Origin: Candidatus Methylomirabilis limnetica
Lineage (GTDB): Bacteria; Methylomirabilota; Methylomirabilia; Methylomirabilales; Methylomirabilaceae
DNA: 32,000 nt
NCBI RefSeq assembly: GCF_003044035.1
Contig: NZ_NVQC01000009.1
Span: 120,001 to 152,000, forward strand
Direction: 5' to 3'
Shown here: one piece after another, positions 3,069 through 27,609 of the stretch
How positions within the stretch are numbered: the stretch's first letter is position 1
How the letters are laid out: every line of letters starts with the position of its first letter
Notes under the pieces: model-generated
What the model was told of the DNA's origin: nothing
Databases searched by the model: none
The model's input: only the letters and a program-made list of their open reading frames with translations
Translations under genes and position numbers: made by a program

Positions 3069-3753
3069 AGGGGGGGTGGGGGGATTTCGTACCTCGCGTA
3101 ACCACGCACGTTCCCACTGTCCTCCTGCATTCCAGCCACTCCTTGACACGAGTAGGTCGCGCCCCATTGATGATCCAGCAACAGCCAATCCCGTTCAGCC
3201 ACCTGGCAAACTCGCGATCCACGCCGCTGTAACGCGGGAGGCGTGAGCGCGCGACGCGCGGAAGCAGGGGGGCGAACGGGTCGACCTTCGGATCCCGCGC
3301 AAAGATCCCATCCACATGCTTCAGCAGCAGCAAGGCATCCGCCCCAACACGTCCGGCGATATAGGCGGCGATCGAATCCGAGGTGACACCCCAAGAATGC
3401 GCAAAGGGATCGTGGCGAGCAAGGGATCGGGAGGGGAGGTAGACCGGAAGTTGGCCGCACCGGATCACCTCCATGACCTGGTTCAGGCTGGAGGCCGGAG
3501 CAGCCTGTGAGGCGAGGTCACAAAGCTCAAGACCATACTGATCCATCGCCAGGATAGCCATCCGGTGCGCGGCGCTTTCAGTGAGCCGTAATCGGCGATA
3601 CTCTGCCCGCACCAGATCGGCAAATACCCCGCCACCCGGAATCACCAACACGTTGGTAGCGCCCTTCCACCGCGCAATGGAATCGAGCAGCTTCCCCAGA
3701 CCGCGCGACCGGCCGAGACTCCCGCCCACCTTGATGACGACGTCGATCTTCAT
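3040..3753 (-). CDS. mfnE: Amino-acid-kinase-fold protein of the methanofuran/H4MPT cluster type (MfnE-like)
   Basis: MKIDVVIKVGGSLGRS...VLVIPGGGVFADLVR is an aspartate/glutamate/uridylate-kinase-fold N-terminus. The gene clusters with mfnB, mfnF-like and mfnD-like genes. Confidence 0.65.
   Translation of the reverse strand: MKIDVVIKVGGSLGRSRGLGKLLDSIARWKGATNVLVIPGGGVFADLVRAEYRRLRLTESAAHRMAILAMDQYGLELCDLASQAAPASSLNQVMEVIRCGQLPVYLPSRSLARHDPFAHSWGVTSDSIAAYIAGRVGADALLLLKHVDGIFARDPKVDPFAPLLPRVARSRLPRYSGVDREFARWLNGIGCCWIINGARPTRVKEWLECRRTVGTCVVTRGTKSPHPPFTKGGHRGI
3042..3087. terminator. C-run/G-run hairpin between convergent mfnB and mfnE-like genes
   Basis: The sequence is AAATCCCCCtgtgtCCCCCttttgtaaaGGGGGGGtGGGGGGATTT, with nested inverted repeats. 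It covers the 3' ends of both convergent ORFs. Confidence 0.4.
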
Positions 3754-4156
3754 GATTCAGCTCTCAGCCCTTCAGCCGTGGCTGACCGCTGATGGTTGAT
3801 GACCGTTAGGAGCACTCGGTCGAGGTGAGAATACCTGACATGCATCAGAAATCCAACGGGCGAGATATACCGGAGCCACTTCCTGTAATCGGCGCGGAGA
3901 GAGAAAGGACCCGCCTTTTTTCCAGGTCGGTGTCAAAGTGTTTTAAAATATTTGGCGGAATACTCAGCATATGACAGCGAACCAACAGTGACTAATCCGC
4001 GGACCGCATAGTAGGCGTTTCATATTGGATATTCCGTGCATTGCCTATTAATCATGTGCTAAATGTAATGAAACCTTATCGTTTACGTCAAGTTGTTGTT
4101 TCGTCTTGACCGTGTAGAATCATCTGTGCTGTACTTATCCGTCCATCTAATAATTG

Positions 4157-4277
4157 GTTCTCCCTTCGCGTCGCTCAGGGAGAACGCGGAGCTGAGCCGG
4201 TACCTCTTCCCGCCGCTCCGCTCCAGGAGAACCAGAGGCACGAAACCGACCACTACGCGGCGGCTCAGCCCCGCGTT
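4157..4277 (+). repeat. Palindromic boundary repeat type C (attC-like mini-unit), copy 1
   Basis: The unit reads G|TTCTCCC-N13-GGGAGAAC GCGGAGCTGAGCCGG...CGGCTCAGCCCCGCG|TTAAAT. It is about 90% identical to 8164..8284, and homology to that copy starts at GTT and stops at GTTA. Confidence 0.8.
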
Positions 4278-4302
4278 AAATAATAGTCCGGCGTGGTGCA
4301 AC

Positions 4303-5481
4303 ATGGATGAGCTTCTTATTATACTTGGGTCTGGCGCTACTGCTGCCATAAGCGAGGGAACTTTGCCTGTCGGTAAAGATTTCTTTTCGTCTCGCAATTC
4401 TACTTGGTCTTCTAACAGTGCAGACTATCCTCACCTGGCTGCAGCTTGTCAAGAAGTCGCAGCCCTCAAGAGCTATTTTGGGGATCTGAATCCTGTATCC
4501 CTCACCGACGTATGGTTGTTCTTGGACACCGTGCTCAAGTATCACTCAGCAACAAGACAGAACAAGGACTATGACTATGACTTACTCAGGATCCGCTATG
4601 ACAAAATGGGCAAGGATGTTCCCATCTATCTCCAACTGGGCCATCTCAATGCCGCCTATTCTAGGCTCAGTGCTGGCATGCATCCTCTATTCTCACCGTT
4701 GCGTAAGAGGATATACGACACGCTCCCACAGGATGACGCAGTTGTCTACTTCCTCGTCGTTGCTGGCTGGGAGTTGAAGCACTTACTCTACAGAACTTAC
4801 GATCCAAGAGAAGCACCGTCAGGGATAGAACTGTATCGGCGCCTACTGGCGGAATTACAGGACTTGAAGGGTCACGCGGTTATCAGCTTCAACTACGATA
4901 TATTCTTCGAAATGTCATGCAGTAAGCCATTGCATCTTCTCGCGGAGGATCAAACTGCGGAAGGCGAAGGTGCAATAGACTTCTGTAAACCTCACGGGGG
5001 CTGGAACATCCGACATGTCGACAACTGCATTATGCCCTTCTGTAGCTTAACCAGGTTCGTCGAGGACACATCTTTTGACAAGCTACCAGACCGTGAGGAG
5101 AGACCAGCTATGATACCCTATTTTTCTTATCCTGACGAGATCGAGATACAGCACCGTGACCAATATCCACAGGTTGGGCAGTTCTTTCGTGACCAGCATC
5201 ACAAAATGAAGAAACTGTTTCAGAACGCGAAGAATGTGGTCTCCATAGGCTATTCATTCTCAAAAGATGACAGACACGTGAGAAGTATCGTGGAGAAAGA
5301 TCTACCGAGTAGCTTTGGCCGAGGCAAGAGAATGTTCTGCGCATTGAGAGGGAGTTCCTATAGAAAAGATATCATGGATCTCTGGAAGTTTGACGAGGAG
5401 GACGGCAAGACATTCAGTTACTATGGAAGCGGTTTCGAAAATACATGCATTGATAAGATCAAGACCTTCCTCAAGTATTAG
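4303..5481 (+). CDS. SIR2-like (SIR2_2-type) NAD-binding-fold protein, stand-alone
   Basis: Motifs occur in the order typical of the SIR2_2 family: LIILGSGATAA, ISFNYDIFFE, FCKPHGGWN, VVSIGYSFSKDDRHV. The start ATG at 4303 lies directly after the type C repeat. The 70 upstream codons of the tracked ORF run through the repeat. Confidence 0.6.
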   Translation: MDELLIILGSGATAAISEGTLPVGKDFFSSRNSTWSSNSADYPHLAAACQEVAALKSYFGDLNPVSLTDVWLFLDTVLKYHSATRQNKDYDYDLLRIRYDKMGKDVPIYLQLGHLNAAYSRLSAGMHPLFSPLRKRIYDTLPQDDAVVYFLVVAGWELKHLLYRTYDPREAPSGIELYRRLLAELQDLKGHAVISFNYDIFFEMSCSKPLHLLAEDQTAEGEGAIDFCKPHGGWNIRHVDNCIMPFCSLTRFVEDTSFDKLPDREERPAMIPYFSYPDEIEIQHRDQYPQVGQFFRDQHHKMKKLFQNAKNVVSIGYSFSKDDRHVRSIVEKDLPSSFGRGKRMFCALRGSSYRKDIMDLWKFDEEDGKTFSYYGSGFENTCIDKIKTFLKY

Positions 5482-5761
5482 GATTTGCCGGAGTGCATAT
5501 CTAGCCAGTCGTTCCAGACCGAATTTGACTCGCAGGCTCGCCAAATCGGCTGAACTTGGTCATTAGGCGGCAGTAGGCCGATGGGTATGTGATTCGGAGC
5601 GTTGCCCCCGTCAGGGAAGCAGGCCAGGATCCCGTTGAGTTCGGCGCCGAAGCGACCATCTGGAGGCTCCCTGGAAGCCGCACGTGAGGCGCCAGAGTGT
5701 AGGACGGTGGGTCTAGCCATGTATCCAGTACCGGGACATCATCGTGGGAGACATTATTAAA

Positions 5762-6541
5762 ATGAAAGGCAATTCGCCTCTCCGCCTTTTGGTCTCTCTC
5801 GTAGTTCTGGTGATCGGCGGTTGCAGCACGGTTTCCGTTCAACCGCCGTTAGGATCATCTACCGAACAAAAGCAGCACAAAGAGCGGTCCAACAATTACG
5901 AGATTGGCCGCGAGCAAGTGGCAAGCATCGGTGAGGCAGTCATCAGAGTTAAGGAATTCGAAGTCTTTGAAACCAGAGCTATCGATAGTGATCGCGTTGC
6001 CCCCGACAGAAATTTCGATGGCGTGTGTGAGCTTCCCGGACCCGACCTCAGGTTTCGCGGTACCAAAGACAAGCCGTTTCCGATTGCCGGTACGACACAA
6101 GCTAACAATGCGACGTATCGAATTATTGTGGTTGCAAGGAACCTGTCAGGTGAGTCTATCGGGGTGGCGTTGAACGCTGATTCTGGCGTGGCAGCCGGTC
6201 CGTGTGCCCATCGAACTCTTCTCGGGTGGCGATTAGTAGGCACAGCAAAGTTTTTATCGGCTGGTGGCCCACCGATTTTCTCGACCCCTACAAGGATTAC
6301 ACGCATCGTCGGGCAAATGGCTGGGCCGGACAACTTTGAATTGGTTTACTTAGGCATTACGAGACAATCGATGTCCCTTCTGTATCGAGAGTATACCGAT
6401 CAGGATTTCGCACGACCGGCGTTTTCGCAGACGCTAAACTATGACCTATCGGACTCTGATGTGATTGCGTTTCGTAAGCTTCGTATCCGAGTAATTAAAG
6501 CTGGCAATCAAGACATCCGGTATGTTGTTACAGCGAACTAG
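5762..6541 (+). CDS. Hypothetical lipoprotein
   Basis: MKGNSPLRLLVSLVVLVIGGC has a signal peptide with a lipobox (IGGC). No recognisable domain follows. Confidence 0.6.
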   Translation: MKGNSPLRLLVSLVVLVIGGCSTVSVQPPLGSSTEQKQHKERSNNYEIGREQVASIGEAVIRVKEFEVFETRAIDSDRVAPDRNFDGVCELPGPDLRFRGTKDKPFPIAGTTQANNATYRIIVVARNLSGESIGVALNADSGVAAGPCAHRTLLGWRLVGTAKFLSAGGPPIFSTPTRITRIVGQMAGPDNFELVYLGITRQSMSLLYREYTDQDFARPAFSQTLNYDLSDSDVIAFRKLRIRVIKAGNQDIRYVVTAN

Positions 6542-6650
6542 TGACCCTAAAACAGCGATAGGAATAACGCAAAAACCTTATGGGCCGCTCTGGGAGCGGA
6601 TATAAAGGGGTGTGCTCGACACAGTCCCTTTAACCCACAAGGTGAGACCC

Positions 6651-6800
6651 ATGATACGACAGACGGTGTTCCCTTTCAAGCTGCAACGGAGCGACGAGAC
6701 CTTGACCGCCCACGGAGGTTTGGCCCTGCTGGCCGAGTATAACCACAGTCTGGGGCTGCGGACCCTGGCTGATCGGCATCTGCCCAGTCCTAGAGAAAAA
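6651..6800 (+). pseudogene. N-terminal remnant of a DDE transposase (IS1380/IS4-like), cut off by the repeat motif
   Basis: MIRQTVFPFKLQRSDETLTAHGGLALLAEYNHSLGLRTLADRHLPSP resembles IS1380-type transposase N-termini as I remember them. The frame ends in the TAG of GAAAAATAGGG at 6795-6803. Confidence 0.5.
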
Positions 6801-7362
6801 TAGGGACAGACACTATTTATCGTGGTGATTCGTGGCGTGTACGGTCATGATCGTGCATTCCACGGATTACTCGAATCGTTGTACCCGGCCACCCGTATCA
6901 TGTGACGCGAAAATAGGGACAGACACTATTATCGTGACGATTCGTGGTGTTCGCGGTCATGATCGTGCAGGCCACGGATTGCTCGAATCGTTGCACATGG
7001 CCACCCGTATCATGTGACGCAACGAGGGAATTATCGCTAGGCGGCCTTTCGGCACGACAGCGATTCGAAAAATAGGGACAGACACTATTATCGTGACAAT
7101 TCGTGGTGCTCGTGGTCATTATCGTACATGTCATGGATTGCTGGAATGGTTGCACCAAGCCACCCGTATCATGTGACGCAACGAGGGAATTATCACCAGA
7201 CGGTTTTTCGGAACGACAGCGATTCGTAGGCACACGATGACAGAGCGACCACTGGGAAGAGATGGGTTCATCTGGGAGGTGCGCAGGAAACTGGGACGAG
7301 TAATACGCGTGTTGCAGAGGGGAAGGCCAAGACAGGACCTCAACGAATAGTGTCTGTCCTTA
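6795..7362 (+). repeat. Module A array: two 3'-truncated copies followed by one full 290-nt copy
   Basis: Each unit starts at GAAAA(A)TAGGGACAGACACTATT (TAGGG at 6801, 6914 and 7073). Unit 1 stops after ~108 nt and unit 2 after ~154 nt. Unit 3 runs to the inverted repeat AATAGTGTCTGTCCTTA at 7346-7362. Confidence 0.85.
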
Positions 7363-7486
7363 TACCCTACCCATCCGGCGAGGTGTCAGACTGCGTGTCC
7401 GGCATCTGGGATGAACTCGCGGCTGGCGCGCCAGGAGAAGACGCTCCGGCCGGGGTGCGCCTACCACCCTGACTGAATCTGCCGAA

Positions 7487-7558
7487 CCGCCGTATACGTG
7501 ATCCGTATGTACGGTGGCGTGGGAGGGGGGAGGCCGTGAGGCCCCTCCCTATCCCGAT
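7487..7558 (+). ncRNA. Group II intron domains V and VI (class C type)
   Basis: Domain V is CCGCCGUAUACGUGAUCCGUAUGUACGGUGG: a CGC triad, a 2-nt bulge on the 3' strand and a 5-bp upper stem. Domain VI is a G-rich/C-rich helix with a GUGA loop and a bulged A at 7551, which is 7 nt from the ...GAU end. Confidence 0.8.
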
Positions 7559-7573
7559 TGGTTTTTACGCAGA

Positions 7574-7603
7574 TTGACAACGATTGAAGATTCAGGCCAT
7601 ATT
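7574..7603 (+). promoter_or_regulatory. Candidate sigma70-type promoter for the phd-like gene
   Basis: TTGACA (7574-7579), an 18-nt spacer and CATATT (7598-7603) lie about 30 nt upstream of the start codon. This rests on a pattern match only. Confidence 0.3.
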
Positions 7604-7634
7604 TGGTACCACTAATGGACTGGAGGTTATCATA

Positions 7635-7922
7635 ATGAAAATTAAAGAAGACATTAAACCCATTTCTTATTTGAAGTCTCGGTCTGCTGATTTAATATCC
7701 CAAATTAACGAAACTCGTAGGCCAGTGATAATTACTCAGAATGGTGAACCTCGTGCAGTTATTCAGGACGCGGAGTCCTATGAAAAAACAATCAATTCTC
7801 TAAACTTAATGAGAATATTGGCGCATGGAGAGAAAGCCATCCAAAAAGGGGACACCATCAAACAAGAAGACCTTTTTAAGCGAATTGATGAAACCTTAAT
7901 GAAAAGGAAGACACATCAATAG
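7635..7922 (+). CDS. Phd/YefM-family type II antitoxin
   Basis: MKIKEDIKPISYLKSRSADLISQINETRRPVIITQNGEPRAVIQDAESYE is a Phd/YefM signature. An RBS (TGGAGG) lies 8 nt upstream of the ATG at 7635. Confidence 0.8.
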   Translation: MKIKEDIKPISYLKSRSADLISQINETRRPVIITQNGEPRAVIQDAESYEKTINSLNLMRILAHGEKAIQKGDTIKQEDLFKRIDETLMKRKTHQ

Positions 7923-7925
7923 ACC

Positions 7926-7987
7926 ATGAAAAGATTCGGGGTTGAGTGGGCTCAGCCAGCGAGTAATATAGAAATAGGCAAGGGAAA
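7926..7987 (+). pseudogene. Truncated RelE/ParE-like toxin gene (first ~20 codons only)
   Basis: An ATG lies 3 nt after the phd stop. It reads MKRFGVEWAQPASNIEIGKG and then runs straight into the repeat motif GAAATAGGGACAGACAC. The call rests on position and on the N-terminal pattern. Confidence 0.35.
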
Positions 7988-8166
7988 TAGGGACAGACAC
8001 TATTATTGTGCATGAATCGGTGTTCCAGAGGGCCGTCAAAGAGGCAAGGCTCAGGGCTGGCATAGAAAATATGGACAGCGACTATTTGTTTGGATTTGCC
8101 TGCATCGGCTGATAACCAGGGCATCAACTCGGACACGGCTTCGCCGCGTCGGTTATGCCCGCCGTT
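7985..8166 (+). repeat. Boundary repeat unit (hairpin motif, recombinase-like fragment, second hairpin motif, type B arm)
   Basis: The unit is collinear with 14288..14472. Its last ~100 nt are also collinear with 17941..18042. Homology ends at GCCCGCCG|TT (8158-8166). Confidence 0.85.
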
Positions 8167-8284
8167 CTCCCTTCGCTTCGCTCATGGAGAACGCGGGGCT
8201 GAGCCGGTGCCCCTTCCCTCCGCTCCGCTACGGGAGAACCAGGGGCACGAAACCGACCGCTTCGCGGCGGCTCAGCCCCGCGTT
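8164..8284 (+). repeat. Palindromic boundary repeat type C (attC-like mini-unit), copy 2
   Basis: GTTCTCC (8164-8170) is complementary to GGAGAAC (8186-8192). The perfect 17-nt arms AACGCGGGGCTGAGCCG (8190-8206) and CGGCTCAGCCCCGCGTT (8268-8284) pair with each other. An inner stem is GTGCCCCT/AGGGGCAC. Confidence 0.85.
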
Positions 8285-8348
8285 AGCTGACTTGTGCGAT
8301 TGCTTCGCGATCACAGTTCGTTCTGGTTAGACAAAGTGATTCAGAAAA

Positions 8349-8365
8349 TGGAATGTTTCATTCCA
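8349..8365. promoter_or_regulatory. Inverted repeat upstream of katG, candidate operator
   Basis: TGGAATG-TTT-CATTCCA lies about 40 nt upstream of the katG ATG. The regulator is unknown. Confidence 0.25.
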
Positions 8366-8376
8366 CGCAGCCGTAG

Positions 8377-10602
<2,226 letters not shown>

Positions 10603-10609
10603 GCGTGGT

Positions 10610-11085
10610 ATGAGCGTTTTCGAGGGCTTCACAGGACGGCAGAAGCGGTCAGCTAACAGCCGGTTCCAGCGGACGGCGCTGCGCGCCGCCGCTGAACCGG
10701 AACGTTGGGCGGCGTGCGGGCATCTGCCTGAGCCGAATGGGAGAACCGTCATCCCGACACTCCACCTGATGTGTGGCCTTCCGTGCTCGGGGAAGACAAC
10801 GCTTGCAAGGCAACTGGCGTCCACGCATCGTGCGGTCCGGCTAACGCCAGACGAGTGGCACACGCGCCTGTTTGGCCAAGATGCGGATTCACCCGAGCAC
10901 GATGTTCGGCACAGCGTCGTAGAGTCGCTCCAGTGGGAGGTCGCCGTCCAGGTGCTTTACCAGAACGTAGACGTGATTCTGGACTTCGGATTCTGGAGCA
11001 AGAGCGAGAGGGAAGACTACCGATCGAGAGGGGATGAGATCGGAGCAGAGATGCGCATTCACTACCTGAATGTGCCCGAGAAAAA
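10610..11085 (+). pseudogene. P-loop kinase (AAA_33/zeta-toxin-like), 3'-truncated by module A
   Basis: The Walker A motif is MCGLPCSGKTTLARQL. The native sequence ends at ...IHYLNVPEK, where GAGAAAAATAGGGACAG begins. The stop codon lies inside the repeat (tracked ORF end 11110). The start codon is uncertain. Confidence 0.55.
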
Positions 11086-11375
11086 TAGGGACAGACACTA
11101 TTTATCGTGACAATTCGTGGTGTTGACGGTCATGATCGTGCATGCCACGGATTACCCGAACCGTTGCATCCGGCCACCCGTAGTCTGTGAGGCAACGGGT
11201 GAATGATCGCCAGGCGATCTTTCGAAACGATAGCGATTCGAATGCGTAAGATGACATAGCGGCCACTGCAAATAGACGGGGTCATCTGGGAGGTGCGCAG
11301 GAAACTGGATGAGTAATACACGTGTTGCAGAGGGGAGCACCAAGAAAGGATTTCAATAAATAGTGTCTGCCCCTA
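11081..11375 (+). mobile_element. Module A, solitary copy (290 nt, bounded by inverted repeats)
   Basis: The ends are TAGGGACAGACACTATT (11086-11102) and AATAGTGTCTGCCCCTA (ending at 11375). The interior is collinear with 7073-7362 and 16226-16517. No intron 5' or 3' parts flank this copy. Confidence 0.8.
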
Positions 11376-11573
11376 TATCCGAACGGTGGCGTTGCCGCTC
11401 CGCTGCGGCGGAATGGCAACGCCGAGCGGATCAAGGATCCGCTGGCTGGCCTCCACTTCGCTACGGTCAACCAGCGGATCTAGTGGACTACAGCTCAGCC
11501 GAGCAAGCTCGGCTCCGCTTCCGCCGCTCATCCGCGCGGTATTAGGCCGATTTTTAGTTGAAAGGAGCGATCC

Positions 11574-11717
11574 ATGAACCGTCAGTTCCCAATTCTTTCC
11601 GCCCTCTCGGTTGTTCCTCGAGCCCTTGGATGGCTCGTGCTCGCCGGTGGGGTTGAGTGGGGTTGGAAGTTCCTCTCTCCCCCTTGCCGGCGTCTCCGTA
11701 GTCATCGCCGCGGATGA
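11574..11717 (+). CDS. Possible 47-aa hydrophobic peptide
   Basis: A strong RBS (AAAGGAG) lies 7 nt before the ATG. The product is MNRQFPILSALSVVPRALGWLVLAGG.... I recognise no homology, and the ORF is too short for the ORF track. Confidence 0.2.
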   Translation: MNRQFPILSALSVVPRALGWLVLAGGVEWGWKFLSPPCRRLRSHRRG

Positions 11718-11788
11718 AATCGCCTATGGTTAGAACCATCGAATGTTCGCGCCGATTCCTCTGGCACGGTGCCTGCTTCTTCTCGGGC

Positions 11789-14251
11789 ATGGACCGAATC
11801 GCGCTCACCATCGCAATCGTCGTCGCTGCTCTCGGATCGGCGCACGCGACACCGCCCGTCGTCCCCGAGCCCGCGCCGATGTGCGTCGAGAACCCGCTCG
11901 AAGGCATGGAGCGGCCGCTCCGCGATACCTCCGAGTGCCCGAGCTTAGCGGCGACGGTCCGCACGATCCGCGCGGTCGCCGCCGAGTTCTTCAAGGACTG
12001 CTCGCTCGATCGCCCCGAGGTCGGGAGGAAATACTCGGAGATCGCCTCGCGCTACGTCGGCATGCCGCCGCAGACGGGTCTGCCAATGATGGTCGCCGAG
12101 TTCGCCTCCGAGGTCGGCAGTGACGGAACGCGCTGCGCGATCCGCGCCGTCGTCAAGGAGGGGTTGCCGGTCAGCAGCGAGACGCGGGAGCAGCTCGTAT
12201 CGGTCGTCAACGGGTTCTTCGAGGCGCAGGACGTCAAGGATCTCTTCGAAGACATCGCCGAGAGCGCGCCGCTGACCGCGGCCGCCAACTTAAAGCGCGA
12301 CGAGCTCTCCAGGAAGTTCGCCAACGAGCTGAACGACCGGGTCGCGGCGTCCGAGGAGCTCCGCGGGAACGCCAACGATTTTCAGTCGCTGAGAGCGAAG
12401 GTCATCTGGGCTATCACGGACGATTCGGCCCGGGCGCGTGCCGCACTCGGCGCGGTCGAGGAGTCGCTCGTTACGTGCAGGGTCGTGGAGGCGGCCAAGA
12501 GCCTCTCCGAAGCCGTAGCGGCCGGCCAGCGCGCCTTGCAAGGCGCGCGGCGCGAGATCCGTGCTTCCGAGAGGGCCGCGGAATGCGCGGAGATCAACCT
12601 TCGACTACAGTACGGCGAGGCCTGGAACCTACAACAAGCGGTCATCGCCGGACCGACGCTCGACCAGTATCGGAGCGTCGTGGCTGCGATCCAGAGGTTG
12701 AAGCAGGACGAAAAGGCGCTCGACGCGTTGCTGCGGCGAGCGGGCGAGAGCTGTCTGCGATTGAAGCAGCAGGTCGGGGTCCGCGACCGGCTGGTCGCCC
12801 ACCATACCGCCGCGAAGGCCCGCGCCATGGCTGCGATCGACGGACGCGCCTGCGACGGCTCGGGGATCGAGGAGGCCGCCGCCACGTTGCGCACTCTGGA
12901 AGGCGCCACCTGCGGCAACCAGGCGAAGCCCGCGGCCAACGAGGTTCTGACCAGGCGCGCGGTGCTCCGCGACGAGCTGCGGCAGAGCGGCGAGTGCAGC
13001 GCGGCGGCGGGCGTGGGTGCGGGCGAGTTCCAGGGCCCGTGGCAATGCCCGCAGCGAGGCACGCTCATGCTCCAGGGAAGCGCAACCGGGGTCAGCGGGT
13101 CGGTGAGCGGCCGCCCAGGCGAGCACTGGGGGACGGGCCAACGTGAGGGAGGGCGGATCGGCGGAACCGTGGAGGGCCGCACGCTTCGCTTGACGATGGA
13201 ATCTGGCGACGGGACCACGAGCCGCATGACGGCGACGTTGTCAATGGACGGGCGCACGATGTCCGGCCCTTGGGAGTGGTTCCGCGGCCCCGCCCGATTG
13301 GACGGTGGCACGTGGAGCTGTCAGCGGCCGGCGGGTTACGCCGGCGGAGGGACTGCTGCGGGGAGAGAGACGGCTTCGCGCAGGACCGCTCGGGTGCCCG
13401 ATATGGTCATTCCCGTCGCGGGGCACGTTGCCAGAACCGGCGGCGGAACCGATCCGTATCAGACGCTCACCGTGCGCGCCCACATCGAGCCCGAGCGGAT
13501 CTCGTGGATCGCATGGAATGACCGACGCGACGTCTCGCTCGTCGTCGCGTCGCGGCCGAACCAGAAGCTGCTAGGTCCAGGGGGCTTCGGAACCGACGAC
13601 TACATCGATCTGACCGTCACGGACCCGTTGGGACGCTCGATGACCGTCAAGATGGATCAGAACGACAAGTACGGCGCATCCTACGGGCCACAGAATCTCA
13701 TCCTCGGATCTCGCGCCAACGCGCCCGCCGCCTACCGCAAGATCCCGTTCGGCCCGACGGCGGGCCAGGAGCTGTTCTTCGACCAGGACGGGGCCTTCAA
13801 CTCGCTGTTCACGAAGGCGGGTCAGTACACGTTCACGTTCGCGTTTCGAGACAACGAGGGGGGCAGGACGGGGTATGGGCACACGAGCATCTTCCTCATC
13901 ATCGCCGCCAGGCAGTCGGCACTCGAAGGCACCGCGGCGAGCGGCGCTCCGGTCGCGCCGGGTTCGAAGAGTCTCTCGTTTGGCGGACGCGTGCTCGACG
14001 TGAGGTACGAGCGCCAGACCGATGAGCGAGGCGTACCGATCGATCTCTACTTCTACCGCACGGCAGCGCCCCCGGGCGTTCCCGCACCCGCCGGCGAGGC
14101 CCAGTGGAGCCGCTTCGTGCGCGTTCCGGCGGACGGGGGCGACTCGAGCGAGCCGGCGGTCTGGTGGCACTCGCGCTGGGAATTCGGTCCAAACGGCTGG
14201 ACGTCGATGGGCGAGAAGGACGTCGCGCCGCCGCAAGCGGTGACGCCGTAA
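11789..14251 (+). CDS. Large secreted hypothetical protein (helical/coiled N-terminal half, beta-rich C-terminal half)
   Basis: The signal peptide is MDRIALTIAIVVAALGSAHA. The frame stays open for 820 codons in a very GC-rich stretch. I recognise no domain. Confidence 0.6.
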   Translation: MDRIALTIAIVVAALGSAHATPPVVPEPAPMCVENPLEGMERPLRDTSECPSLAATVRTIRAVAAEFFKDCSLDRPEVGRKYSEIASRYVGMPPQTGLPMMVAEFASEVGSDGTRCAIRAVVKEGLPVSSETREQLVSVVNGFFEAQDVKDLFEDIAESAPLTAAANLKRDELSRKFANELNDRVAASEELRGNANDFQSLRAKVIWAITDDSARARAALGAVEESLVTCRVVEAAKSLSEAVAAGQRALQGARREIRASERAAECAEINLRLQYGEAWNLQQAVIAGPTLDQYRSVVAAIQRLKQDEKALDALLRRAGESCLRLKQQVGVRDRLVAHHTAAKARAMAAIDGRACDGSGIEEAAATLRTLEGATCGNQAKPAANEVLTRRAVLRDELRQSGECSAAAGVGAGEFQGPWQCPQRGTLMLQGSATGVSGSVSGRPGEHWGTGQREGGRIGGTVEGRTLRLTMESGDGTTSRMTATLSMDGRTMSGPWEWFRGPARLDGGTWSCQRPAGYAGGGTAAGRETASRRTARVPDMVIPVAGHVARTGGGTDPYQTLTVRAHIEPERISWIAWNDRRDVSLVVASRPNQKLLGPGGFGTDDYIDLTVTDPLGRSMTVKMDQNDKYGASYGPQNLILGSRANAPAAYRKIPFGPTAGQELFFDQDGAFNSLFTKAGQYTFTFAFRDNEGGRTGYGHTSIFLIIAARQSALEGTAASGAPVAPGSKSLSFGGRVLDVRYERQTDERGVPIDLYFYRTAAPPGVPAPAGEAQWSRFVRVPADGGDSSEPAVWWHSRWEFGPNGWTSMGEKDVAPPQAVTP

Positions 14252-14287
14252 ACAGCGTAAAAATAAAAATAAAATAGGAAAAATAGG

Positions 14288-14472
14288 AATAATAGGGACA
14301 GACACTATTTATCGTGAATGACTCGATGATCCAGAAGGCCGTCAAGGAGGCAAGGCTCAGGGCTGGCATGGAAAATAGGGACAGCGACTATTTGTTTAGA
14401 TTTGCCTGCATCGGCTGATAACCAGGACATCAACTCGGACACGGCTTCGCCACGCCGGTTATGCCCGCCGTT
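14288..14472 (+). repeat. Boundary repeat unit (hairpin motif, recombinase-like fragment, second hairpin motif, type B arm)
   Basis: The unit is collinear with 7985..8166 and ends at GCCCGCCG|TTATGCG (G at 14470). Stuttered partial starts (AAAATAGG AAAAATAGG AATAATAGGG) precede it at 14271-14297. Confidence 0.85.
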
Positions 14473-14551
14473 ATGCGCCTTAAAAATAAATCCTTCAAAT
14501 AATCCAATGAATGTGTATGATATAGTTATATATACACATAGGAGGTAAGGT

Positions 14552-14746
14552 ATGAGAACGAATGTAGTCATAGATGACGATCTGATGGAATCCGCCCTCA
14601 AGGTGTCCGGCCTCAGAACAAAAAAGGATGCCATAGAAGAGGGGTTGAAACTGTTGGTGCAAGTCAAACGCCAGAAAGAAATTAAGCGGTTTCGAGGAAA
14701 ACTCAAATGGTCTGGTAATCTCGACGAGATGAGGTTAGACAAATGA
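14552..14746 (+). CDS. vapB: VapB-family type II antitoxin
   Basis: MRTNVVIDDDLMESALKVSGLRTKKDAIEEGLKLL is typical of the VapB/DUF2191 type. Its stop overlaps the vapC start by 4 nt. Confidence 0.8.
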   Translation: MRTNVVIDDDLMESALKVSGLRTKKDAIEEGLKLLVQVKRQKEIKRFRGKLKWSGNLDEMRLDK

Positions 14747-15138
14747 TTCTCGTTGATTCGTCCGTCTGGATCGACTACTTCAACGGCAATAAAACGTCTC
14801 AGACGGACTGGCTGGACTCTTCACTTGGAAATACACCCATCATCATAGGTGATCTTATCCTAACCGAAGTTCTTCAGGGATTTCAGAACGATAAAGACTT
14901 TAAGACAGCCAGGGATATTCTCTTAGGTATCCCATTTATGTCGATGGGAGGACAGGTATTAGCCCTAGAGAGCGCCATGAACTATAGATTGTTGAGGAGA
15001 AAAGGCGTGACGGTAAGGAAGACCATAGACGTCATGATTGGAACTTTCTGTATCCACCACCAGCAAACATTGTTGCATGATGACAGGGATTTCGATCCGA
15101 TAGTTAAGTTCTTAGGCCTGAAGACAATAGTCACATAA
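14743..15138 (+). CDS. vapC: VapC PIN-domain toxin
   Basis: MILVDSSVWIDYFNG...DLILTEVLQG...HDDRDFD contains the PIN acidic residues in the usual order. Confidence 0.85.
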   Translation: MILVDSSVWIDYFNGNKTSQTDWLDSSLGNTPIIIGDLILTEVLQGFQNDKDFKTARDILLGIPFMSMGGQVLALESAMNYRLLRRKGVTVRKTIDVMIGTFCIHHQQTLLHDDRDFDPIVKFLGLKTIVT

Positions 15139-15316
15139 CCAATCAAACCACCGGACCCTCGTTCCTCGTGCCGGTGATCTTTTCGTTGGCTCGTAAAATG
15201 AATACTGTGGAGAAAAACAAATATGCAGGCACAAAACGAAACATTATCTGAGAGTGCCGCTGAAGGGCGCGTCTCTCAGCGTCGTACTCCAGAACCGTAA
15301 CTAACGGAGGTGACAC

Positions 15317-15793
15317 TTGAAAAATAGGGTTTATATCGAAACTTCGGTTATTAGTTATCTCACGGCACGCCCAAGCAACGACATCCGTGCAATAGCCAAT
15401 CAGAATGTCACCATCGAGTGGTGGGAGACGCAGCGGCTCAATTTCGATTTATTCATATCGGAGTTTGTCGTTGCTGAAGTAAGTCTTGGGCATCCTGACG
15501 CCGTAAAGCGACGTCTTGAGGCAATCGCCGACATTATGGAGCTGGAAGCAACAGAAGAGGTCCGGGTGCCGGGCCAGGAACTTATCCGGCGCAACGTTTT
15601 GCCCGCAAATGCCGAAATTGACGCTTATCATGTGGCTATTGCTACCGTGAACGGCATCGAATATCTTCTGACCTGGAATTGCACTCATATTGCTAATGCT
15701 CATACACGGCCAAAGATTGAGGCCACCTGTCGGGCGCTTGGTTACGAGCCGCCCATCATCTGCACACCGCAAGAACTAACGGAGGAGGTTTAG
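15317..15793 (+). CDS. PIN-like domain protein (toxin-type)
   Basis: The start is TTG with a GGAGGTG RBS. MKNRVYIETSVISYL...AEIDAYHVAIATVNGIEYLLTWNCTHI matches a PIN-like family that is usually paired with a small downstream gene. Confidence 0.65.
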   Translation: MKNRVYIETSVISYLTARPSNDIRAIANQNVTIEWWETQRLNFDLFISEFVVAEVSLGHPDAVKRRLEAIADIMELEATEEVRVPGQELIRRNVLPANAEIDAYHVAIATVNGIEYLLTWNCTHIANAHTRPKIEATCRALGYEPPIICTPQELTEEV

Positions 15794-15795
15794 CT

Positions 15796-16032
15796 ATGTG
15801 GCAAGACCCTATCGTCAAGGAGACGCGTACACTTAGAGAAGAATACGCCAATCAGTTCGATCACAATGCTGACGCGATATTTCAAGACATTTTGCGAAGG
15901 CAAGCCGCATCTGGTAAAAAACTGGTTTCTTTCAAGCATCGCAAACCTGTGCCATCGAAAATTGCAGCAAAACAGGAAAGACCAGTTTCAAGCTTACACA
16001 CTTCAACGGCTGCAATAAAACAGAGCAAATGA
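15796..16032 (+). CDS. Small partner protein of the PIN-like gene (putative antitoxin, reversed gene order)
   Basis: It starts 2 nt after the PIN stop. MWQDPIVKETRTLREEYANQFDHNADAIFQDILRRQAASGKKLVSF resembles small proteins that commonly sit next to such PIN genes. Confidence 0.5.
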   Translation: MWQDPIVKETRTLREEYANQFDHNADAIFQDILRRQAASGKKLVSFKHRKPVPSKIAAKQERPVSSLHTSTAAIKQSK

Positions 16033-16094
16033 GCGAACGTCCAACCAGCGGCTCGACACCGACCGGGCTTCGCCCGGGCAGCTCAGCCCGCCGT
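16033..16094 (+). repeat. Boundary-repeat right arm (type C-like) forming the intron 5' exon
   Basis: ...ACCGACCGGGCTTCGCCCGGGCAGCTCAGCCCGCCGT resembles the right arm of type C (AACCGACCGCTTCGCGGCGGCTCAGCCCCGCGT) and contains the stem CCGGGC/GCCCGG. A weaker relative lies at about 11466-11510. Confidence 0.6.
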
Positions 16095-16220
16095 GTGTGC
16101 CGGGCATGGCACAGAACTGACGGGGTGCAAGTCCCCGTGCCAGGTTTAAGCAGAGCCGAAGGCTAGGAGAAGGGCAAGAGCCTGCCCCGGACTCGATCCG
16201 GGGGCGTCATCGTGAGGTGG

Positions 16221-16517
16221 GAAAATAGGGACAGACGCTATATATTGTGACGAGTCGTGGTGTTTACCGTCATGACCCGCGCCTTGCTACGGATTACCTG
16301 AACCGTTGTACCCGGCCACCCGTATCATGTGATGCAACGAGGGAATGATCACCAGGCGGTCTTTCGGCACGACAGCGATTCGAAGGCACACGATGACAGA
16401 GCGGCCACTACGAAGAGACGGGTTCATCTGGGATGTGCGCAGGAAACTGGACGAGTAATACACATGTTGCAGAGGGGAACACTAAGAAAGGATCTCAATA
16501 AAGAGTGTCTGTCCCTA
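16221..16517 (+). repeat. Module A copy nested in intron domain I
   Basis: The copy runs from GAAAATAGGGACAGACGCTAT... to ...AGAGTGTCTGTCCCTA. The flanking intron sequence GGUGGG/CCCAgCC could close a helix around it, so it appears to sit in a hairpin loop. Confidence 0.8.
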
Positions 16518-16636
16518 TACCCAGCCGGCGAGGTACCAGACTGCGTGCCCGGCATCTGGGATGAACTCGCGGCTGGCGCGCCAGGAGAAGACGCTCCGGT
16601 TGTGATGCGCATACCACCCTGACGGAATCTGCCAAG

Positions 16637-16708
16637 CCGCCGTATACGTGATCCGTATGTACGGTGGTGTGGGAGGGGAGAGGCCGTGAGGACTCCCCCT
16701 GTCCCGAT
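16637..16708 (+). ncRNA. Group II intron domains V and VI
   Basis: Domain V (CCGCCGUAUACGUGAUCCGUAUGUACGGUGG) is identical to the copy at 7487. The domain VI helix differs from the other copy by one apparently compensatory pair. The position of the bulged A is a G here (16701). Confidence 0.8.
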
Positions 16709-16775
16709 TCTCCCTTCCCTCCGCTCCGGGAGAACCATGGGCACGAAACCGACCGCCTTGCGACACATGGGAGCT
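16709..16775 (+). repeat. Degenerate, internally deleted type C repeat (intron 3' exon)
   Basis: TCTCCCTTCCCTCCGCTCCGGGAGAACCATGGGCACGAAACCGACCGCC is type C with a deletion between two CCCTTC direct repeats. The right arm has diverged. Confidence 0.65.
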
Positions 16776-16780
16776 GAAAG

Positions 16781-17884
16781 ATGCCTTCTCTTTTTCAATG
16801 GAACGACACGTTTCTGACCCATATTGACTCCGTTGATGAACAGCATCAGCGACTGGTTGGCCTGATTAACCAGCTTGGCGACATGGTGATGTCTGGCAAG
16901 GATTTTGATCCTCAGTCGCTTGCCTCGGTTCGTGACAGCATCCTGAACTATGCGATCGTTCATTTCGGTGACGAAGAGGCATTGATACGCACTGCGGGGC
17001 TTGATCCGAGATATCTCCAACGACAGTATTCCGACCATAAGGTCTTCATGCACGAAGCCACTGTTCTGGGAGACAAGGAGAGCACTCTCTCCATAGAAAA
17101 GATCATGCGTCTGGAAAACTACCTTGTCTATTGGCTAGTCCGTCATATCCTTGAAGTTGACCATAGCATGGTCCGCCAGATCCATGCTATGCGCGAGGGA
17201 AAGACACCAACCGAGGCGTTCGATCTGGAAAACGAGCTGCAGAACTCCAGCGCCGAACCCCTGTTGTCGGCAATGAATGGGCTGTTCCTCGTTGTCTCCG
17301 AGCGCAATCGTGAACTCTACGCCTTGAACCGTGATCTGGAACAACGCGTGGAGCAGCGAACGATGGAGCTGGAGCAAGCCAACCGGGAGTTGCAACTGCA
17401 GTCCACGCACGATGATCTGACGGGATTGCCCAACCGCCGATTCGCCATGCTCAGCCTCGACCAGCTATGGAAGGAGCGACAACGTTATGGCGAGCCGCTT
17501 TCCCTGCTGTTGCTCGACGCCGACCATTTTAAGCAGGTAAACGATAGTTTTGGCCACGCCCAAGGTGACGAACTCCTCCGGATTATCGCCGAGCGTTTGC
17601 GCCAGTCCGTGCGTGCCAGCGACATTGTCCACCGCCTCGGCGGCGATGAGTTTCTGGTGATCTGTCCAAGGAGCGACCGAGAGGGTGCCACGGTAGTCGC
17701 CAACAAGATCCTGACTGAATCCAGACCATTGCAAACCGCGGAAGGTGTGGAATGCTGGGATGGATCCTTGAGTATTGGCATTGCCGAGTGTAACAGCTCC
17801 ATGGCCCGGCATGAAGATCTGCTGAAAGCCGCCGATCAGGCCATGTACCTTGCAAAAAGCAAGGGTGGCGGATGCGCAGTCTGA
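16781..17884 (+). CDS. Hemerythrin-domain diguanylate cyclase (GGDEF)
   Basis: The N-terminus WNDTFLTHIDSVDEQHQRLVGLIN is of the bacteriohemerythrin type. A coiled linker follows. The C-terminal domain carries DDLTGLPNRR...LLLLDADHFKQVND..GH..GD...RLGGDEFLV, an intact GGDEF motif. Confidence 0.85.
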   Translation: MPSLFQWNDTFLTHIDSVDEQHQRLVGLINQLGDMVMSGKDFDPQSLASVRDSILNYAIVHFGDEEALIRTAGLDPRYLQRQYSDHKVFMHEATVLGDKESTLSIEKIMRLENYLVYWLVRHILEVDHSMVRQIHAMREGKTPTEAFDLENELQNSSAEPLLSAMNGLFLVVSERNRELYALNRDLEQRVEQRTMELEQANRELQLQSTHDDLTGLPNRRFAMLSLDQLWKERQRYGEPLSLLLLDADHFKQVNDSFGHAQGDELLRIIAERLRQSVRASDIVHRLGGDEFLVICPRSDREGATVVANKILTESRPLQTAEGVECWDGSLSIGIAECNSSMARHEDLLKAADQAMYLAKSKGGGCAV

Positions 17885-17940
17885 ACATCGAAAGTGAGGG
17901 CAGGAAATATGAGAATTGGATTGCGTGAAGGTGGAATTGA

Positions 17941-18042
17941 GAAAATAGGGACAGCGACTATTTGTTTAGAGTTGCCTGCATTGGCTGATAACCAGGACAT
18001 CAGCTCGGACACGGCTTCTCCGCGCCGATTATGCCCGCCGTT
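17941..18042 (+). repeat. Boundary repeat (hairpin motif variant plus type B arm) at the right end of the island
   Basis: The repeat runs from GAAAATAGGGACAGCGACTATTTGTTTAGAG... to ...GATTATGCCCGCCG|TTGAGCGC. The G|TT junction (18040/18041) is 8 nt from the mfnF-like stop codon. Confidence 0.85.
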
Positions 18043-18048
18043 GAGCGC

Positions 18049-27513: not shown

Positions 27514-27554
27514 AATCCTCACGCATTATGGCTGTTCAGCTACCGGCCGTCCCT

Positions 27555-27609
27555 GTAGGGGTAGGGCTTGCCCTACCCAAAGAGGGCGCAGCAAGCAGCG
27601 CCCCTACGC
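27555..27609. repeat. REP-like double-hairpin extragenic repeat, copy 2
   Basis: The sequence is GTAGGGGTAGGGCTTGCCCTACCCAAAGAGGGCGCAGCAAGCAGCGCCCCTACGC. It lies between the glyS stop and the PRT start. Confidence 0.8.

Follow-up and report, generated by a model that had tools for sequence, protein, structure and literature searches.

A probable gene-less integron cassette, made almost entirely of its attC-type site, in a cassette array of Candidatus Methylomirabilis limnetica

Integron integrases cut a folded single strand after the first base of a core triplet, and in textbook attC sites strand choice and efficiency are considered to be set by an unpaired spacer and extrahelical bases. The Vibrio cholerae repeats (VCRs) are conserved sequences of ~120 nt with a branched terminal structure that end at G|TT, follow genes, retain the unpaired spacer and the extrahelical bases, and are largely found in one genus. 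Here we describe a repeated unit found in two copies, at 4157-4277 and 8164-8284, within a 32,000-nt stretch of Candidatus Methylomirabilis limnetica (contig NZ_NVQC01000009.1, positions 120,001 to 152,000); this whole stretch is hereafter called the window, and coordinates are counted from its first letter unless another locus is named. The unit is like the VCRs in its length of ~120 nt, its high conservation, its branched end and its G|TT terminus, but it appears as a stand-alone cassette, has a main stem without unpaired features and crosses phyla.

Cassettes without a gene have been documented in Vibrio superintegrons, Treponema and Xanthomonas, and those without an open reading frame (ORF) are described as bearing a classical attC, many of them with promoter activity or a small RNA (PMC11014356, PMC6557892, PMC8876359). 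The gene-less cassettes tested in Vibrio, for which size-matched controls of 450-650 bp were used, often bear promoters (PMC11014356, PMC6557892). As in these cassettes, the unit is discrete between two crossovers, has its own attC and no ORF, and may be the first of its array. Unlike those described, it measures 118 nt and is nearly all attC, with a 15-nt body, a fully paired main stem and near-identical copies across phyla, and unlike many of them it has no internal promoter consensus. No description of the unit or of its sequence was found in the literature searched, which included the supplements of an archaeal-integron paper and whose coverage was incomplete, and nothing specific was found there for 'empty cassette' or for Methylomirabilis integrons.

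The comparisons below indicate that the unit is very probably a gene-less integron cassette, which extends over 118 nt, from the TT of the opening GTT to the G of the closing one, and consists of one long attC-type site plus the 15-nt 'body'.

Junctions and fold of the unit

Copy 2 (8164-8284, cassette proper 8165-8282, + strand) scored 152.4 bits with R2, a model of the unit, and is 96-99% identical to copies in other phyla. Copy 1 (4157-4277, cassette proper 4158-4275, + strand), the first cassette of the array, scored 127.8 bits and is the more decayed of the two, with A.C mismatches in three stems. Pairwise comparison within the window aligned 4157-4278 with 8164-8285 at 91% identity over 122 nt. 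On the 5' side the sequences diverge right up to the G of GTTCTCC (ATAATTG|GTT in copy 1, CCCGCC|GTT in copy 2), and on the 3' side they diverge past GCGTT, with a single A in common. Both positions, and the limitation of the homology by GTT triplets, had been proposed in a sequence-only reading of this DNA and were found again.

That reading had also described the unit as a circular permutation of a hairpin. The sequence GGAGAACGC at 8186-8194 and the perfectly complementary 17-nt arms (AACGCGGGGCTGAGCCG and CGGCTCAGCCCCGCGTT) were re-read as stated. When the end of the unit is joined to its start, CGGCTCAGCCCCGCG followed by TTCTCC is the exact complement of GGAGAACGCGGGGCTGAGCCG, which completes a perfect helix as predicted, although one of 21 bp in copy 2 and of 22 bp in the family consensus rather than about 24 bp. 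The compensatory change noted between the two copies in the inner stem (CCTCT/AGAGG versus CCCCT/AGGGG) is a real double change at one base pair, but copy 1 holds an additional, uncompensated A.C in the same stem.

Folded as single-stranded DNA, the unit region gave z-scores against shuffles of -4.75 (+ strand) and -4.27 (- strand). RNAalifold applied to 25 distinct units returned five elements, which in copy 2 correspond to hairpin H1 (GTTCTCC/GGAGAAC, 8164-8170 with 8186-8192), the long main stem P2 (8193-8206 with 8268-8281), inside it P3 (8207-8214 with 8241-8248) with H2 (8215-8218 with 8232-8235), and P5 (8257-8260 with 8264-8267). The AAC at 8190-8192 can pair with the GTT at 8282-8284 in place of its partner in H1. 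With the diverged variants included, 97.5% of the cells were paired and double changes occurred in 26 of 40 pairs, against none of 500 shuffles reaching 26 pairs and at most 6 in slid controls, these figures being somewhat inflated because the alignment was fitted to the model. All six pairs of H1 covary.

The closure of an attC hairpin by R'' and R' has its counterpart in GGAGAAC (8186-8192), which faces the GTT at 8282-8284, and this pairing persists where AAC/GTT has become AAT/ATT and where neighbouring pairs have changed. Among the copies (L numbers denote loci in other genomes or metagenome contigs), three variants of the R'' triplet were found. Where the triplet is AAC, the unit ends with G and begins with TT; where it is AAT, the unit ends with A and begins with TT (L012, L013-type, L051, L052 and one L047 copy); and where it is ATT, the unit ends with A and begins with AT (L047/L048 type). 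The flanking base contributed by the upstream site is G in all three variants, and only two or three degenerate copies depart from the rule. R'' thus matches the last base of the unit plus its first two, a sequence present only when the ends are joined. This three-way covariation bears out the circular permutation and argues for a cassette with an integrase crossover after the first base of the triplet, rather than for the target-site duplication of a transposon. By sequence comparison, both ends of the unit are shown to coincide with integrase crossover points (x|TT).

These junctions also bear on whether the unit might instead be a repeat of the repetitive extragenic palindrome (REP) or miniature inverted-repeat transposable element (MITE) kind, mobilised by a transposase of RAYT, IS1111-attC or similar type that happens to target attC cores, with the GTTs as target duplication. 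The unit is indeed a short palindromic repeat in several copies, and the island around it harbours other attC-targeting elements, namely a group II intron-like insert and a MITE-like piece bearing terminal inverted repeats. The flanking triplets differ, however, between the two sides (5' GTT versus 3' ATT in the L013 type, GAT versus ATT in the L047 type), and the first base of the 3' triplet covaries with an internal base and hence belongs to the unit. In addition, copies were found only in cassette arrays, at the crossover and co-oriented, and no such transposase was present among the island ORFs scanned, all of which makes such a repeat highly improbable. Group IIC-attC introns and other elements insert into attC sites, the introns being reported on the bottom strand (PMC3001079). 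Like these introns, the unit sits exactly at attC cores in arrays; unlike them and the attC-targeting insertion sequences, which have their own machinery, it carries no catalytic RNA signature and has ends that act like integrase crossovers.

By analogy with known cassettes, the unit would be moved by the integrase IntI on a folded strand. It would be excised as a small circle, in which its last and first bases join into a helix of 21-22 bp with GGAGAAC (8186-8192), and the circle would be re-inserted at attI or beside another attC in a single orientation.

As a site, the unit departs from the textbook attC, in agreement with the non-canonical character attributed to it before. Ordinary attCs of the same arrays consist of CCTAAC, 5 unpaired nt, GTT(C)GAG(C)GGG, a loop stem, CCCCTCAAC, 5 unpaired nt and GTT. 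The 3' arm of the unit (CGG CTCAGC CCCGC GTT) is recognisably like that of an ordinary attC, and its 5' arm is the perfect complement of the 3' arm. The core GTTCTCC/GGAGAAC does not fit GTTRRRY/RYYYAAC. A weaker alternative fold of the 3' half leaves a 2-nt mismatch, CA versus GC. All variants read retain a bulged A just 5' of P5 (CCG-A-CCGC), and the one-way orientation seen in 22 of 22 loci implies recognition of some asymmetry. Shorter units of ~72-80 nt (L027, L032) contain the 5' hairpin and the 3' half only, and the 120-nt form looks like a site of this short type to which a perfect partner was added.

Several observations weigh against regarding the unit as an integron cassette. Its main stem contains neither an unpaired central spacer, GCGGG/CCCGC being fully paired, nor extrahelical bases. 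R1, a small local covariance model built from nine ordinary attCs of related arrays and used on the window with filters off, gave only 9.6 bits (E 4.2; E-values of the models built here are rough) for the 3' half of copy 2 and no match for copy 1, neither of them a significant recognition. The whole branched fold is conserved beyond the known needs of an attC, which hints at an added function. The window has no intact integrase, and the evidence is sequence comparison, with neither an excised circle nor gain or loss seen directly. Finally, the taxonomic spread of the unit rests on the bins of metagenome-assembled genomes (MAGs), of which at least L021 and L024 carry sequence close to that of the window and are probably mis-binned.

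The core outside the consensus, the stem without canonical unpaired features and the failure of R1 to detect the unit are also what might be expected of the site of a different, undescribed recombinase, the second alternative offered in the sequence-only reading. In contrast, attC and attI sites have junctions, at the same base, that are interchangeable with its own, IntI is the sole recombinase consistently nearby, and R1 does recognise the 3' halves of diverged variants as attCs (23-25 bits, E ~1e-3). Another recombinase is not needed to account for the unit, nothing was found that positively favours it, and its involvement is very unlikely. Both this possibility and that of a REP- or MITE-like repeat were rejected on the junction evidence.

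Copies in other arrays and the neighbouring integrase

One genome per species was scanned for GAGAACCNNNGGCACGAAACCGACC, which gave 34 loci. One of them, L006, was discarded as a chance match to this probe, the rest of the unit being missing. With R2, ~47 full-length copies were found outside the window, 82-99% identical along the whole unit and not in the probe alone. They come from unbinned metagenome contigs and from MAG contigs binned to ~8 phyla, with labels that include Nitrospirota, Ca. Brocadia, Deltaproteobacteria/Thermodesulfobacteriota, Smithella, Methylomirabilota, Armatimonadetes, Nitrospinae and Dehalococcoidales, among others. The sequence-only reading had considered that further copies might prove to be an ordinary dispersed REP; those found are bound to arrays, and their homology ends at the x|TT junctions.

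At the 5' boundary, G|TTCTCC follows directly on an attC or an attI. The upstream sequence is either the 3' end of an ordinary attC, for instance ...GCGCGCCCCTCAACTTTAC|GTT, or a promoter-like TTGACN-17-TAnnnT followed by ...TAATAACT(G/T)|GTT. At the 3' boundary, GCG|TT or GCA|TT is followed by the start of an ordinary cassette (TTAGGC, TTATGC, TTAGAC, TTGGGC and similar). In L036 a cassette TTAGACATCACG... (TTAGACATCACGAAAAAGAAC...) was found after an ordinary attC as well as after a unit, indicating that the 3' end of the unit is a genuine junction and that the unit is optional. The unit is co-oriented with the ordinary attCs in all 22 loci noted above; arrays of this kind adjoin attI and intI, and some have an intact integron integrase next to them. 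A 118-nt segment with its own attC, no ORF and ~47 copies between varied neighbours corresponds to what is expected of a gene-less cassette. One Nitrospirota contig has at least 7 copies, and L012 carries two different family members in tandem. Units that are 96-99% identical stand beside promoter and attI regions that barely align, which argues for movement between integrons.

A scan of metagenome contigs for GCTCAGCCCCGCGTTCTCCCTTCGC, the junction expected of tandem or circular units, gave 7 matches, none of which was junction evidence, all being the reverse complement of a variant with a flipped first hairpin loop. The loop of the first hairpin was seen in either orientation, TTCGCTTCGCTCA or TGAGCGAAGCGAA (L014 6378-6498, L039-L045, and the L013/L036 units), and also as a palindromised hybrid, CTTCGCGGAGCGAAG. 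These flips are a small hairpin-associated inversion or a template switch.

The only recombinase found consistently near arrays with the unit is IntI. In L013 a gene for a protein of 474 aa diverges from the promoter/attI side; the protein matches TIGR02249 'integron integrase' at 381.6 bits (cut-off 265) and carries the IntI-specific insertion. Full-length homologues adjoin the arrays of L012, L022 and L034, and only N-terminal stubs are left in L015, L025, L028 and the window. The integrases beside the arrays (L013 2466-3890, P0001-P0120) are 440-517 aa long, with a ~160-aa N-terminal extension before the region of the integron-integrase model, and public data contain thousands of members of their clade. 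The first 35-47 integrase codons survive in several decayed integrons, including that of the window. A motif resembling TATTAGTCA occurs two to three times, in both orientations, between the start of intI and the promoter of the array in many loci (window ~3985-4060; L013, L034, L046, L053 and others), and is a candidate binding site for the integrase or a regulator.

An attI motif, ...TAATAACT(G/T)|GTT, lies 143-188 nt from the intI start in nine loci (L013, L012, L022, L034, L046, L048, L049, L052 and L053), where it is followed by various cassettes or by the unit. Fourteen of the 38 pattern-found copies with readable upstream sequence follow attI directly. To escape ascertainment bias, nine loci were sampled by integrase similarity alone; seven of these and the pattern-found L034 provided eight integrons with a recognisable attI. 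An ordinary cassette stands at the crossover in five of the eight (L046, L048, L049, L053, L034) and a member of the unit family in the other three (L047, L051, L052), diverged (51-72 bits) but with the same fold. The unit is the first cassette in roughly a third of the integrons of this integrase clade.

This position could mean that the unit is a semi-permanent part of the platform, a structured secondary attachment site beside attI which receives incoming cassettes or boosts recombination, with the copies inside arrays as by-products. In L013, L012, L022, L047 and L052 the unit does lie 143-188 nt from the intI start, and it is kept beside attI where intI has been lost (window, L015, L021, L037). 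Against such a role stand the five of eight integrons with an ordinary cassette directly at attI, and the near-identity of units beside barely alignable attI/promoter regions, which indicates movement and not co-inheritance. A platform function is accordingly improbable in our estimate, if less so than the transposase-moved repeat.

A somewhat better, still doubtful, case can be made for a role at the level of RNA or expression, in which the cassette, transcribed from the array promoter, would be kept because its very stable three-way-junction fold serves the downstream cassettes as a leader, insulator, transcript stabiliser or small RNA. Such a role is compatible with the identity of the unit as a cassette and differs only on why it is common. 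Compensatory change maintains the whole fold, beyond the recombination boxes and also in diverged variants, and two stretches are conserved in sequence, the linker RAACSGAC and the loop motif TCGCTnCGCTC. The unit is the first cassette downstream of the promoter in about a third of the clade's integrons, it typically lies 20-35 nt before the next ribosome-binding site, and regulatory RNAs or promoters have been described in cassettes without an ORF (PMC8876359, PMC11014356). On the other hand, the window gave no Rfam 15 match at gathering score and 8050-8420 only chance-level matches at E up to 10, so that no Rfam family is recognised. A scan of 3700-8500 for sigma-70 and intrinsic-terminator consensus found nothing within either unit copy; a promoter cassette was discarded for want of sequence support, as judged by this consensus scan only. 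After removal of an artefact, top-strand G.T and A.C mismatches numbered ~15 and 14; being equally frequent, they give no sign that the transcript is the strand that folds. Loops of ordinary attCs share the conserved loop motif, which was seen in both small hairpins of the unit (8171-8185, 8219-8231) and in the terminal loops of some ordinary attCs of this integron clade (L017, L034); conserved attC loops are unusual, and TCGCTnCGCTC might mark a protein contact.

Within the cassette interpretation, we lean towards the unit being mainly a very efficient, nearly cost-free 'minimal cassette' that spreads between integrons, its small circle making an ideal substrate; the conservation of the whole fold and of a few unpaired motifs would also fit a regulatory or platform role. 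A more far-reaching proposal, which we put forward only tentatively, is that the units form a specialised family of hyper-mobile 'attC-only' mini-cassettes, satellites of a single large environmental integron clade. Such a unit would persist because its small circle, a single continuous hairpin, makes it an ideal substrate for the integrase, and wherever it landed next to other DNA it would supply recombination sites ready for use. What has been observed in this direction is a GGDEF cassette of the window with a unit remnant fused to its 5' end (16709-16763) and the 72-80 nt units of L027 and L032. If true, the proposal would provide a way by which ordinary genes become cassettes or arrays are regulated from position 1, and would bear on the question of how cassettes acquire attC sites.

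As a probable cassette cut down to its recombination site, the unit has a main stem devoid of the unpaired features thought to be required, yet it is inserted one way everywhere and is near-identical across contigs binned to ~8 phyla. It provides a natural test case for what an integrase needs in a site, and is a candidate selfish element of integrons or source of attC sites.

The cassette array of the window

The two window copies belong to a cassette array of 14 kb (~3950-18045) in which seven ordinary attC sites are accompanied by an attI-like site and a remnant of intI 35 codons long. Every sizeable ORF of this island is on the + strand, as are all ORFs between 4093 and 17884, and the G+C content is mixed (42-72%). 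The content is typical of cassettes, with Phd/YefM, VapBC, a further PIN protein, katG, a kinase, a GGDEF protein and unknowns. Core genes flank it on the left (UbiD, 4-HFC-P synthase, amino-acid kinase) and on the right (hydantoinase-A-like, ATP-grasp, PTPS, GAPDH, transketolase). The island sits between methanopterin/methanofuran genes of a methanotroph-type, Methylomirabilota-like genome.

The sequence-only reading had found no intI gene in the window. No intact gene is present, but a tblastn search with the intact L013 IntI revealed an N-terminal remnant at 3867-3970 (- strand; 76-78% identity, aa 1-35), in which codons 1-35 carry a frameshift and the rest is deleted. The segment 3863-4258 of the window aligns to L013 2575-2177 at 84.5%. 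A promoter-like region facing the array lies at 4106-4135 (+ strand), with a -35 box TTGACC at 4106-4111 and a weak -10 box. It was not picked up by the sigma-70 consensus scan; TTGACN, 17 nt and TAnnnT recur at a constant distance from the crossover in at least 12 loci, and we infer that 4106-4135 may act as the array promoter. It is followed at 4136-4157 (+ strand) by the attI-like site ...CCGTCCATCTAATAATTG, recognised by its homology to the attI of other loci, with the crossover after G4157.

All seven R1 matches are on the + strand, each at the 3' end of a gene within the island. The textbook attC that closes the katG cassette (10652-10706) scored 39.1 bits (E 6e-8). Three sites are of type B: 8111-8166 (23.4 bits, E 9e-4), whose final GTT is the start of unit copy 2, 14417-14472 (21.3 bits, E 0.003) and 17987-18042 (12.8 bits), the last attC of the array, after which core genes resume. 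The site at 5500-5564 (16.1 bits, E 0.075) ends in ATT|AGGC. A weak candidate at 15134-15187 (12.5 bits, E 0.68) comes after the vapBC cassette, directly after the PIN gene, and the R' core of the attC at 16040-16094 (10 bits) is split by the group II intron-like insert (16095-16708); in L047 a unit is preceded by a close relative of this last site. The matches at 17987-18042, 15134-15187 and 16040-16095 are weak and were counted as sites because of their location.

Clusters of attC sites that lack an integrase (CALINs) occur commonly, and there are reports of attCs nearly identical between phyla and even between domains (PMC9668308). With seven R1 matches and two units in 14 kb on the + strand, the island exceeds the two nearby attCs by which a CALIN is defined and is like one in having co-oriented attCs without a functional intI. 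This agrees with the first alternative of the sequence-only reading, an attC cluster without an integrase that follows G|TT logic, both ends of the unit being cassette junctions. Unlike an orphan CALIN, the window retains the attI homologue and 35 intI codons, which makes it a decayed complete integron rather than an orphan cluster. The components of a complete integron are recognisable in the window only in reduced form, with intI down to codons 1-35 with a frameshift, an attI identified by homology and a weak -10 box. On the strength of the intI stub and the 84.5% alignment to the integrase/attI side of L013, the window contains a decayed integron, comprising intI remnant, promoter-like region, attI and cassettes.

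The same chromosomal locus was found in the Methylomirabilota-like L030, L021 and L020, with flanks 78-92% alike, other cassettes (a sign of turnover at the locus) and no intI; the right flank of the window from 18034 on is 89% identical to L020. Comparison of 3779-3996 with L030 and L021 showed a shared insertion point and nested deletions of the intI region. The shared flanks and nested deletions suggest an old chromosomal integron that lost its integrase, and the two window copies of the unit, which lie in this sedentary integron, are probably fossils, barring the action of an integrase in trans. For annotation, 3950-18045 can be described as a decayed chromosomal integron carrying katG, GGDEF and toxin-antitoxin cassettes. 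The katG gene, encoding a catalase-peroxidase of 731 aa, forms a 2.4 kb cassette (8283-10706, + strand) that is large for an integron cassette.

Other elements in and around the array

Besides the two copies, R2 detected a short degenerate unit-like remnant at 16709-16763 (+ strand, 24.4 bits), fused to the 5' end of the GGDEF cassette. With the intron-like insert taken out, it follows its attC at G|TTCTCCC. A distant relative of the unit, 'type D', lies at 11391-11521 (+ strand, 25.3 bits, E 0.014), and part of it is found directly after attI in L030.

The group II intron-like insert (16095-16708, + strand) contains no ORF and starts with GTGTG. RF00029 matches its domains V-VI at 16635-16708 with 31.3 bits (E 4e-4), which is less than the gathering score. 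The insert interrupts the GT^T core of the 16040-16094 attC and does so on the top strand, group IIC-attC introns being reported on the bottom strand. A second 3' fragment of the insert, 91% identical, is present at 7368-7559.

A MITE-like piece of ~300 nt with terminal inverted repeats of 21-26 nt (ATAGGGACAGACACTATT) was found at 7067-7367, 11080-11380 and 16220-16522, with partial copies at 6795-7067 and single ends at 7982, 8064, 14287, 14370 and 17940. One copy lies inside the intron-like insert, and lone ends stand just upstream of the three type B attCs. At 6653-6790 (+ strand), ~45 N-terminal codons look by eye like a putative IS1380-family transposase and end exactly at the start of a copy of the inverted-repeat element.

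Outside the island, an unrelated 56-nt double-hairpin repeat occurs at 1516-1571 and 27554-27609 with 95% identity, and looks like an ordinary dispersed extragenic repeat.

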